A stretch of 64,000 nt of DNA, from assembly GCF_000092825.1 (NCBI RefSeq), contig NC_014168.1:485946-549945 (forward strand), given 5' to 3'. Of the stretch, positions 27,001 to 30,000 are shown piece by piece. The position numbers are program-made. How positions within the stretch are numbered: the stretch's first letter is position 1; each line of letters begins with the position of its first letter. Origin of the DNA: Segniliparus rotundus DSM 44985 (lineage in GTDB: Bacteria; Actinomycetota; Actinomycetes; Mycobacteriales; Mycobacteriaceae).

Positions 27001-30000
27001 CGGGCGCGGGGACTCGTGAAGGAGTGAGCGTGCAACGTCTGCGGGCAGCGGTGATCGGCGGTGGGATCGGCGGTCTCGCCGCGGCGATCGCACTGCGGGA
27101 GAACGGTCTTTCTGCCGTGGTGTTCGAGAAAGCCCAGGAGCTTCGCGAGATCGGGGCCGGAGTTGTGGTCAGGGCCAATGGCATGCGCGCTTTGGCGAGC
27201 ATCGGCGCCCGGTCGGCAGTGGGCGAGGTCGCGCTGCCGGTGCGGTGCCGTCCGCCGCAGATGTGGCACGGCGACTCGTTGTCGCCCGACGCGGACCCGC
27301 ACGGCAACGGCACTTTGGAAAGCCCTGTCGTGTACCCTGCGCACCGGGGCGAGCTGCAGCGGGTCCTCAAGGAGCAGCTGCCTTCCGAAGCGGTGCGCCT
27401 CGGCCATACCCTTGAGCGCGTCGCAGAGGACGAGGACGGCGTGGAGGTCTTCTTCGCGAACGGCGAGCACGAGCGGTTCGACCTGGTGATCGGGGCGGAC
27501 GGCATCCATTCGGTCGTGCAAGGCTGCATAGGCGAGCCGGTGCTCCCCGAGGGGCAAGGCATCATGGCCTACCGGGGGCTGGTTCCCGCCGAGCGCCTCG
27601 TGGGGAAGGCCGAAACCGCCCGGCTGTGCCAATGGCTCGGCCAAGACCGCTACTTCATCACCTATCCTGTCTGCCGGGGGAGGCTGCTCAACGTGGTGGC
27701 TTCTGTCCCGAACACCCTGCCAGAAGGCTCCTGGTCCGCTCCGGGCGATATCGCAGACTTCGCCCGCGAATACGAGGACTGGCACCCGGAGGTGCGTCGT
27801 GTCATCGACGCGATGGACCACACATTCCGATGGGGCATTTATGACCGGCCCCCGCTGAGCCGATGGACGAGCGGCCGAGTCGCCTTGATCGGCGACGCCG
27901 CGCACGCGATGCTCCCGTACCTCGGCCAAGGCGTGAACACCGCCATGGAGGACGCGGTCACGCTCGGTGTTTTGCTCGCCGGCGCCGACACCGGCGAACT
28001 CGCAGGCCGTCTGCGCATGTACGAGGATGTGAGCCGGGACCGCATCCATCGGATTCAGCAGAGCTCGCGAAGGATGGGGCGGATCTACCGCGACGCCCGG
28101 CTCGGGGCCGACGACCGCAGGGAGCGGATGGCCGCCGAGTTGCAAGGCGGCAGTTGGCTCGCGGGCCACGACGCGGAGCGCACGGCCAGGTCGGCGCTGG
28201 CCCAACTCGTGCGAGCGGGCCGGAGTCTGGAAAACAGTCGGTGAGCCGTGCGCGCCCCAGGCCGCAGGGGCGTCGAAAGGAGGGCGGGAAACCCCGCCCC
28301 TATGATTCGGGGAGGGGTTTCCGCTTGTGCCCGAGGGCTTTGGCCAACGAAGGAGCACTGCGGTTCGGACTCAGAAATTTTGGCGGTGGCGGAGGGATTT
28401 GAACCCTCGGACGCTTTCACGTCACACGCTTTCGAGGCGTGCTCCTTAGGCCGCTCGGACACGCCACCAAGCGGTGGACTCTACACGAGCGGGTGGGGGA
28501 GCACAAACCGCATTCGCCGGGGATCGGGCAGGCGGGCATGCTGCCCCGGACAGTCGGCGCGGGGTGTTCTTGTGCCATGAGAAATCGCCACATGCGTGGT
28601 TGGCGGCATGTCCGGACAGACAAGGCCCGGTGGGAAAGAAATGACCGCAAAGCCGTACCGGTGCGCTGTCGTGGCTATGGCTCGCGCGACACGGCGCCAG
28701 CCCTTCTCGTCGAGCGCAGGCAGGAGGTCTTCCTCGACTGGCAAGCGCGCAACGTCGCGTTCCGCAGTTCGAGCTCTTCCGGGGCGTGGGCCTTGGCGAA
28801 CAGATCGCCAAGGCCCACGCCCCGCTTCTCGGGGGATGCCCTGCGCCGCTTTGGCGTTTTCAGCGATTGCCGTTTTCGGCGATTGCCGTTTTCGGGGTTT
28901 GCCGTGCCCTGAGCTTGCGGAAGAAACTTCGGGTGAGCTCGGCGCATTCGGCTTCGAGGACTCCGGAGCGCACCTGTGGCCGGTGGTTGAGCCGAGGGTC
29001 CGTCACCACGTCCCATAACGAGCCGACCGCGCCGGTCTTGGGCTCCCGCGCGCCGAAGACGATCCGGGCGATCCGGGCGTTCACGGCAGCCCCCGCGCAC
29101 ATTGTGCATGGCTCCAGGGTCACCGCCAGCGTGCAGCCGATGAGCCGCCAGCCATCGCCGAGGATTGCGGCGGCCTGGCGCAATGCGAGGATTTCCGCGT
29201 GCGCGGTCGGGTCGCCGAAAGCCTCTCTGGCGTTCGCGGCGCGGGCCAATTCCTTGCCGTCTGGGCCGAACACGACGGCTCCGACCGGCACGTCCAGCTC
29301 GCCTGCGGCGCCTGCGGCGGCAAGGGCCTCGCGCATCAGCGCGGCGTCGGGGTCCCCGGCGTCGAAATCCTCGGTGGCGGGGTTTTGGCGGTCAGTGCTC
29401 ATTGTTGGGGATTTCGGGGTTGGGGCACGCCGTCGGGGTCCCCGGCGTCGAAATCCTCGGTGGCGGGGTTTTGGCGGTCAGTGCTCATTGTTGGGGATTT
29501 CGGGGTTGGGGCACGCCGTCGGGGTCCCTGTTCACCCGCGTGGGCGCTGGTCGGCCTTTTCGAGCTCTTCTTCAAAGCCGAGCTGGCGGGCGAGCGCCGC
29601 GAGTTGTTCGTCCGCGTACAGCTCGTCGGACTCGGAGACAATGAGGCCGAGCACGGACTCTGGCAGGCCCAAGTCTTCGAGAATGCCGAAATCCCCTTCC
29701 GCCCAAGGCTCTTCGTCGTCGTCGAGCTCGTCTGGGTCCGGGATTTCCACATGCAGCTCGTCAAGGACGTCGGCGGCGAGGTCGTAGTCGAGCGCCGCGG
29801 TCGCGTCGGACAGAAGCAGCCGCGAGCTTCCCGGTCCTGGACGGACGATCACGAAGAACTCGTCGTCCACGTTGATCAGTCCGAACACCGCGCTGGTGCT
29901 GCGCAGCTCGCGGAGTTCTCGTTCGGCCTGCTCAAGGCTCGTGAGCACCTTGGGGGACAGGCCCAACACGCGCCAGCGCCCCTCTTCGCGCACGACCGCG

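Follow-up and report, generated by a model that had tools for sequence, protein, structure and literature searches.

An exact 86-bp tandem duplication at the coupled tadA start of Segniliparus rotundus, probably recent and of modest effect

Segniliparus rotundus DSM 44985 carries, in a 64,000-nt stretch of its chromosome (NC_014168.1, positions 485,946 to 549,945; hereafter the window), two exact head-to-tail copies of an 86-bp unit at the 5′ end of tadA, the gene for tRNA adenosine(34) deaminase. The evidence makes it probable that this is a real and recent tandem duplication, formed between 12-bp direct repeats at the junction that couples tadA to the Rv3753c-like gene upstream, that the relay of short overlapping open reading frames (ORFs) at this junction tolerates additional copies, and that the effect on TadA is modest. 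In kind it is an ordinary repeat-slippage event and a new instance of known phenomena.

Analysis with Tandem Repeats Finder revealed an array at 29345..29528 with a period of 86, 2.1 copies, 100% matches and 0 indels (score 368). Direct comparison at an offset of 86 gave an identity run of 98 nt, so that the array consists of two exact 86-bp copies plus 12 bp. The copy at 29431..29516 is promoter-proximal on the coding strand, and the copy at 29345..29430 is tadA-proximal and holds the functional tadA start. The 12-bp direct repeat GGGACCCCGACG (coding strand) bounds the 74-bp core and is present three times at 86-bp spacing, at 29517..29528, 29431..29442 and 29345..29356, all in one codon phase (GAC CCC GAC, encoding DPD). 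Identical head-to-tail copies, with the bounding direct repeat present as a 12-nt partial extra copy, are the hallmark of microhomology-mediated tandem duplication. An earlier sequence-only reading had recognised the exact duplication and its end at 29528, while its start at 29346 was off by one and its 11-bp third unit is in fact 12 nt long. Only two tandem arrays across the window score at least 80, one of them the 86-bp array, which excludes chance. On the minus strand the unit comprises 28 nt 5′ of the tadA ATG, 19 codons and one base. These first 19 codons of tadA, which that reading had rightly placed in the unit, encode an N-terminal tail that is hypervariable and lies outside the deaminase domain. 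In a sister lineage, all of the unit reads in frame as normal tadA coding sequence.

To test for an assembly artefact, we turned to the Logan assemblies, which are made from public read sets. These assemblies are built with k=31, and the 30-nt repeat overhang found here agrees with that value. The upstream gene is present on nine Logan contigs (nine SRA runs), which match the window at 100% identity over as much as 3.5 kb and all stop at 29499. This position lies 33 nt beyond the upstream stop codon and takes in one unique base plus 30 repeat bases, and such an end is what marks a node with two predecessors in a k=31 de Bruijn graph. The break at the other boundary (29374, cutting TadA at codon 11) was predicted beforehand, and a look-up of the 170-aa fragment returned four contigs, of which L092 (31 kb) begins exactly at 29374. 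Breaks one base outside each repeat boundary (29499 and 29374) are thus seen in at least ten independent read-graph assemblies at k=31. A single-copy genome would not branch at these boundaries, because its sole internal repeat, of 12 bp, is shorter than k−1; the breaks therefore mean that the junction k-mer G+GGGACCCCGACGGCG... must exist in the raw reads, the duplication-junction string being GACGCCGGGGACCCCGACGGCGTGCCCC. The reference assembly was made from 454 reads (mean length 304 nt, 58x), together with Illumina reads and directed finishing (PMC3035277). The mean 454 read is longer than the 184-nt array, so single reads could span it.

A walk along the minus strand from the upstream stop revealed unbroken 4-nt overlaps, GTGA, ATGA and ATGA, up to tadA. 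Relay ORF 1 (16 codons, 29485..29535, minus strand) begins with a GTG at 29535 placed over the upstream stop and ends in a TGA (29487..29485) that shares bases with the ATG at 29488. This ATG opens relay ORF 2 (29 codons, 29399..29488, minus strand), which is made by the duplication and whose TGA (29401..29399) overlaps the tadA ATG (29402..29400); this is the 29-codon ORF that had been noted earlier as opened by the upstream duplicated ATG. In the single-copy form, tadA is already reached via the 16-codon ORF, which overlaps both the upstream stop (GTGA) and the tadA start (ATGA). Coupling of tadA to the upstream gene thus predates the duplication, which inserts a second relay step. The suggestion that the duplication now couples tadA to a leader peptide therefore stands for the added ORF with its stop–start overlap, but not for the coupling, since the 16-codon ORF linked tadA before. 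Because 86 equals 30 codons × 3 − 4, the chain of −4 overlaps is kept at any copy number, each extra unit adding one more 29-codon ORF. Removal of every unit would join GTG-AAC-AGG-GAC-CCC-GAC in frame to GCC-GCG-CTG-ATG, because all three 12-bp repeats share their codon phase. The relay ORF 2 peptide has no Pfam match, and a search with the unit-encoded peptide among 5.8 billion clusters found no scoring protein, in what was a low-power test (a 45-aa concatenated query, one candidate).

A Shine–Dalgarno (SD) sequence is absent at all relay starts, as judged from anti-SD pairing energies of 0.1, −1.8 and −1.8 kcal/mol at the three starts against a random-position mean of −3.5. The 20 nt 5′ of the tadA ATG, CAACCCCGAAATCCCCAACA, account for one of the values of −1.8 kcal/mol; pairing weaker than the random-window mean gives no support to the view that the duplication contains a ribosome-binding site. 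A scan of 28300..30300 found no sigma-70-like promoter, and the TANNNT (−10) motif is absent on both strands of the 86-bp unit. No terminator was found close by on the coding strand; a single terminator-like site, on the plus strand within the upstream gene, matches the background rate. RNA folds of the two-copy and one-copy leaders are no better than those of shuffled sequences (z = −1.0 and −0.65), and Rfam gave no match in the window at gathering thresholds, nor in 29250..29650 at E ≤ 1.

The locus was compared with those of 80 related genomes, covering Segniliparus, Mycobacterium and allied genera, Rhodococcus, Nocardia, Gordonia, Saccharopolyspora, Kutzneria and others. A start in the tadA frame lies at −4 from the upstream stop (NTGA) in 54 of the 80 and within ±4 nt in 70. 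The distance from the upstream stop to the catalytic HAE motif is mostly 155–176 nt in these relatives; at the window locus it is 333 nt with two units, 247 nt with one and 161 nt with none. Segniliparus rugosus and a Segniliparus metagenome-assembled genome (MAG) have the GTGA overlap followed by short tails ending in DPD-x-AL. The MAG (L011 3528..3590) has a TadA N-terminal tail of its own, of about 20 codons (VTEILRDGALPEAVLPEDPD), with only short stretches (GACGGCGCGC) in common with the tail of the rotundus clade. Throughout the genus, the first 10–30 codons past the coupled start are hypervariable.

The closest comparison is provided by L114, a metagenome contig from the Joint Genome Institute (JGI) with about 92% nucleotide identity to the window. 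Its TadA has 195 aa and starts with a GTG at −4 over the upstream stop, and its N-terminal tail reads in frame as VTEDPDGAPQPRNPAMSTAQHTPETEDFD, without a tandem repeat. This tail is homologous to relay ORF 1 plus the DSM 44985 leader, joined in one frame; relay ORF 1 is homologous in frame to VTEDPDGAPQPRNPA of this sister lineage (L114/P0002). Judged by its sequence, relay ORF 1 is what the frameshift left of TadA's ancestral N-terminus. Codon alignment revealed two differences: DSM 44985 has CCC-CAA-CA-ATG where L114 has CCC-GCC-ATG, a net gain of 2 nt, and DSM 44985 has 15 nt extra (GGGGACCCCGACGCC), which create the second 12-bp repeat. The frameshifted old frame ends at ATGA because the internal Met codon is followed by AGC (ATGAGC).

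From these comparisons we infer the following order of events. The ancestral state would have been a gene pair coupled at −4, whose TadA N-terminal tail grew in frame to about 29 residues in the rotundus clade. A net gain of 2 nt immediately 5′ of the internal Met codon would then have thrown the tail out of frame in the lineage of DSM 44985, with TadA rescued by reinitiation at the internal ATG. The second 12-bp repeat GGGACCCCGACG would have emerged next, and the 86-bp duplication would have followed by slipped-strand mispairing or unequal exchange between the two GGGACCCCGACG copies, which lie 86 bp apart at the tadA 5′ end. The order and the slippage mechanism are those that the comparisons best suggest. 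The duplication step is recent, because no difference separates the copies and the repeat is missing from the sister lineage; with the junction present in the read graphs, this bears out the very recent, real duplication that had been put forward as one of two options.

Ribosomes that end translation of the upstream gene would reinitiate stepwise at the overlapping starts and so reach tadA, whether 0, 1, 2 or more units are present. Handing ribosomes on to a downstream gene through short ORFs spaced at −4 is an accepted mechanism, for which MIRUs (mycobacterial interspersed repetitive units) are cited as a natural example (PMC12548453). As the relay is preserved at any copy number, the duplication is tolerated before the presumably essential tadA. 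Its most likely effect would be a modestly lower translation of TadA through one extra reinitiation step, with no new regulatory role, and the duplication is probably nearly neutral.

The architecture can be set beside three known systems. Like the variable-number tandem repeats (VNTRs) of the MIRU type in Mycobacterium tuberculosis, such as the 77-bp and 53-bp units of the senX3-regX3 intergenic region (Supply et al. 1997, after PMC12548453, PMC3184786, PMC4213456), the unit falls in the 40–100-bp range and is repeated head to tail between co-oriented operon genes (here 86 bp × 2.1 between the Rv3753c-like gene and tadA). The start and stop of its ORF likewise share 4 nt each with the stop and start next to them, and its length is 2 mod 3, as for the 77- and 53-bp units, so that the chain survives any copy number. 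Copy number possibly differs between stocks, as in MIRU-VNTRs, and the host also belongs to the Mycobacteriales. Unlike a MIRU, the 86-bp unit was found at one locus only among the window and 90 related loci, has no sign of mobility and derives in place from the sequence that codes for the N-terminus of TadA. The direct repeat at its bounds has 12 bp where that of MIRUs has 4 bp, and the likeness is drawn from architecture. The second system is microhomology-mediated tandem duplication by RecA-independent slipped-strand mispairing. Here as there, the period equals the spacing of two direct repeats (12 bp), the structure is n + 0.14 copies (the unit twice plus one extra repeat) and the absence of divergence between copies points to a recent event; mechanistically there is no difference, and only the landing place is special. 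The third is the NTGA-coupled gene pair (PMC12548453), which is matched by the three successive NTGA junctions, the lack of SD sequences at the downstream starts and the juxtaposition of the genes in most relatives. What differs is that two non-conserved mini-ORFs are interposed as a relay and that reinitiation is here read from sequence. The unit thus resembles a MIRU in its working but is not a MIRU; a microhomology-mediated tandem duplication at a coupled junction, possibly a VNTR, is the class that suits it best.

The read sets bear on whether the second copy is real and whether it is constant. The sequence-only reading had offered an assembly artefact as its other option: a true genome with one copy, and a finished reference in which reads were mis-joined in a repeat-prone region. 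A single Logan contig, L091 (SRR6392275, 6,194 nt), speaks for this, as it runs through the locus with one unit, all its other bases being identical to the window. The graphs of at least ten other read sets, however, branch at both boundaries, which is impossible with one copy, and the array is short enough for the average 454 read; an artefact is extremely improbable, and we rejected it because the graph breaks demand the junction k-mer in the reads. L091 consists of two GGGACCCCGACG copies flanking the 74-bp core, and is either a true one-copy allele or stock or a graph simplification from under-sampled junction k-mers; whichever its origin, it displays the pre-duplication layout. One read set thus gives a one-copy contig, perhaps through assembler collapse, and more than ten give the graph breaks of two or more copies. 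One- and two-copy alleles might therefore coexist among S. rotundus cultures or stocks and interconvert by slippage, as a VNTR. L091 beside the two-copy reference and the other read sets would fit this, as would the 12-bp flanking repeats, which ease both gain and loss, and a second, strain-specific 16-bp array at the other end of tadA. De Bruijn simplification that drops low-coverage junction k-mers could also produce L091, and no second S. rotundus strain was recovered in scans of genomes and metagenome contigs. The genome scan gave sister species only, with no match at 100%. The unit core, scanned for as an exact pattern, had no match among JGI metagenome contigs, and a protein-guided scan of metagenome contigs for further Segniliparus loci returned only distant genera, at up to 67% identity. 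We regard such heterogeneity as a tentative possibility, somewhat doubtful on present evidence.

Two further explanations concern what the unit is. A MIRU-type mobile intergenic repeat could have inserted at the tadA start codon and then been amplified; an 86-bp tandem unit between co-oriented operon genes, with −4-overlap ORFs and a length of 2 mod 3, is what such an element would look like (PMC12548453, PMC3184786, PMC4213456). The 74-bp core is, however, homologous codon by codon to the in-frame tadA N-terminal coding sequence of L114, so the sequence is not foreign to the locus. No further copy of the unit was found in the 64-kb window (2% of the genome) or in 90 related loci, and the unit is accordingly not interspersed within that range; no other protein with the unit-encoded peptide was found, and terminal inverted repeats and significant structure are lacking. 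This origin is very improbable. In comparison with S. rugosus and the MAG, the 74-bp core was also considered as a foreign insertion, a candidate ruled out by the same in-frame L114 sequence. Also very improbable is a regulatory leader peptide or attenuator, in which translation of the 29-codon ORF senses a condition and controls tadA. The ORF does overlap the tadA start, and an 8-bp inverted repeat (CGAAATCC/GGATTTCG) brackets each ATG. Against this, the peptide simply repeats the TadA tail, followed by read-through out of frame, and matches no family, the leader folds are no better than shuffles and have no Rfam match, the inverted repeat is not kept in L114, and the coding strand has no terminator nearby; such control is scarcely to be expected.

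Several points weigh against a real and recent duplication tolerated by a working relay. Every read set that displays the junction is 100% identical to the reference and may derive from one DNA or culture lineage of the DSMZ. DSM 44985 belongs to the JGI mock community MBARC-26 (PMC5037974); the sole SRA run identified by literature search, SRR3732372, is listed in the literature as a ‘real metagenome’. The single-copy L091, identical elsewhere over about 6.1 kb, is not assignable to another strain and might be a collapsed graph. Which way the differences of 2 nt and 15 nt between DSM 44985 and L114 went is presumed from outgroups only. The main alternative is that tadA could be translated independently, for example from Met23 (the RefSeq model WP_049773391.1, 158 aa) or by way of an unseen internal promoter, with the relay ORFs incidental. 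The codon corresponding to Met23 in the Segniliparus MAG is, however, GTC, which is not a start codon, and the near-universal adjoining of the tadA frame and the upstream stop argues that translation begins there. A real, recent duplication at a coupled start is the reading we retain.

The upstream operon partner (29532..30041, minus strand; stop TGA 29534..29532) encodes an Rv3753c-family tRNA adenosine deaminase-associated protein of 169 aa, which matches TIGR03941 at 166 bits (cutoff 53.6) and Pfam PF27101 and is an exact match to ADG97023.1. This gene also has no SD sequence (−1.7 kcal/mol), but TACCGT, a TANNNT motif, lies at −13..−8 from its ATG at 30041 (30049..30054, minus strand). The position is compatible with a mycobacterial-type leaderless transcript beginning at or near that ATG, in which case the operon would start leaderless and tadA would rely on coupling.

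From ATG 29402, tadA (28860..29402, minus strand; ADG97022.1) encodes 180 aa. Its match to NF008113, the TadA equivalog model, has E = 7e-44 and 149.5 bits, 0.5 bit under the cutoff of 150. It matches PF14437 at 107 bits and PF00383 at 90 bits, with the deaminase domain beginning at about residue 19–21, and carries the HAE...PCxxC motif of the zinc-binding domain of the cytidine deaminase (CDA) fold. Its start is annotated in two ways, as ATG 29402 in ADG97022.1 and as Met23 (29336) in WP_049773391.1, and S. rugosus tadA likewise has two start models (166 and 153 aa). In most relatives the start overlaps the stop of the upstream gene, an arrangement that the shorter RefSeq models disregard.

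At the other end of the gene, a second array (28851..28905; 16 bp × 3.4 copies, 89% matches; coding strand CCGAAAACGGCAATCG) covers the stop codon and the C-terminal tail of TadA. Sister lineages lack this array; in L114 and S. rugosus the C-terminal tail is single and different. Both arrays that score at least 80 in the 64-kb window thus sit at opposite ends of one 543-bp gene, an arrangement with a chance of about 1%, which points to a hotspot of slippage here or to a relaxed constraint on the two tails of TadA.

A tRNA-Ser(CGA) gene lies 3′ of tadA (28381..28468, minus strand; ARAGORN) and, as a member of a conserved neighbourhood, is kept at 87–95% identity in relatives. The whole-window Rfam scan at gathering thresholds gave zero matches, the tRNA family included, despite this gene, which probably reflects the tool set-up and not biology. 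About 390 nt separate tadA from the tRNA in DSM 44985 (window 28469..28859). In L114, two additional genes are found between them (3630..6181), for an LCM-type methyltransferase of 299 aa and a flavin adenine dinucleotide (FAD)-binding hydroxylase of 551 aa, which corresponds to an indel of about 2.6 kb beside the duplicated locus.

For annotation and quality control, the practical point is that the reference of the S. rotundus type strain (CP001958/NC_014168) contains a real duplication. As DSM 44985 is part of a widely used mock community, the tadA locus will systematically break short-read assemblies there. For the annotation of start codons in actinobacterial tadA, the RefSeq Met23 model disregards the coupling arrangement of most relatives. 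The locus offers a natural example of how a −4 stop/start overlap can neutralise a frameshift before an essential gene, of how repeat units of length 3n − 4 can expand with translational coupling intact, and of how a MIRU-like architecture can arise from local coding sequence and not from a mobile element. A bolder proposal, which we consider unlikely, is that a MIRU-like ORF-relay unit was born in place here, a frameshifted tail rescued by an internal ATGA having become an 86-bp module (3n − 4) that can amplify or contract without uncoupling an essential gene. On this view, if copy number truly varies between cells or stocks, it could provide a heritable, reversible dial on the level of TadA, and hence on the supply of inosine-34 tRNA-Arg. 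If true, this in-place birth of a relay unit would be a concrete model for the origin of MIRU-type units.

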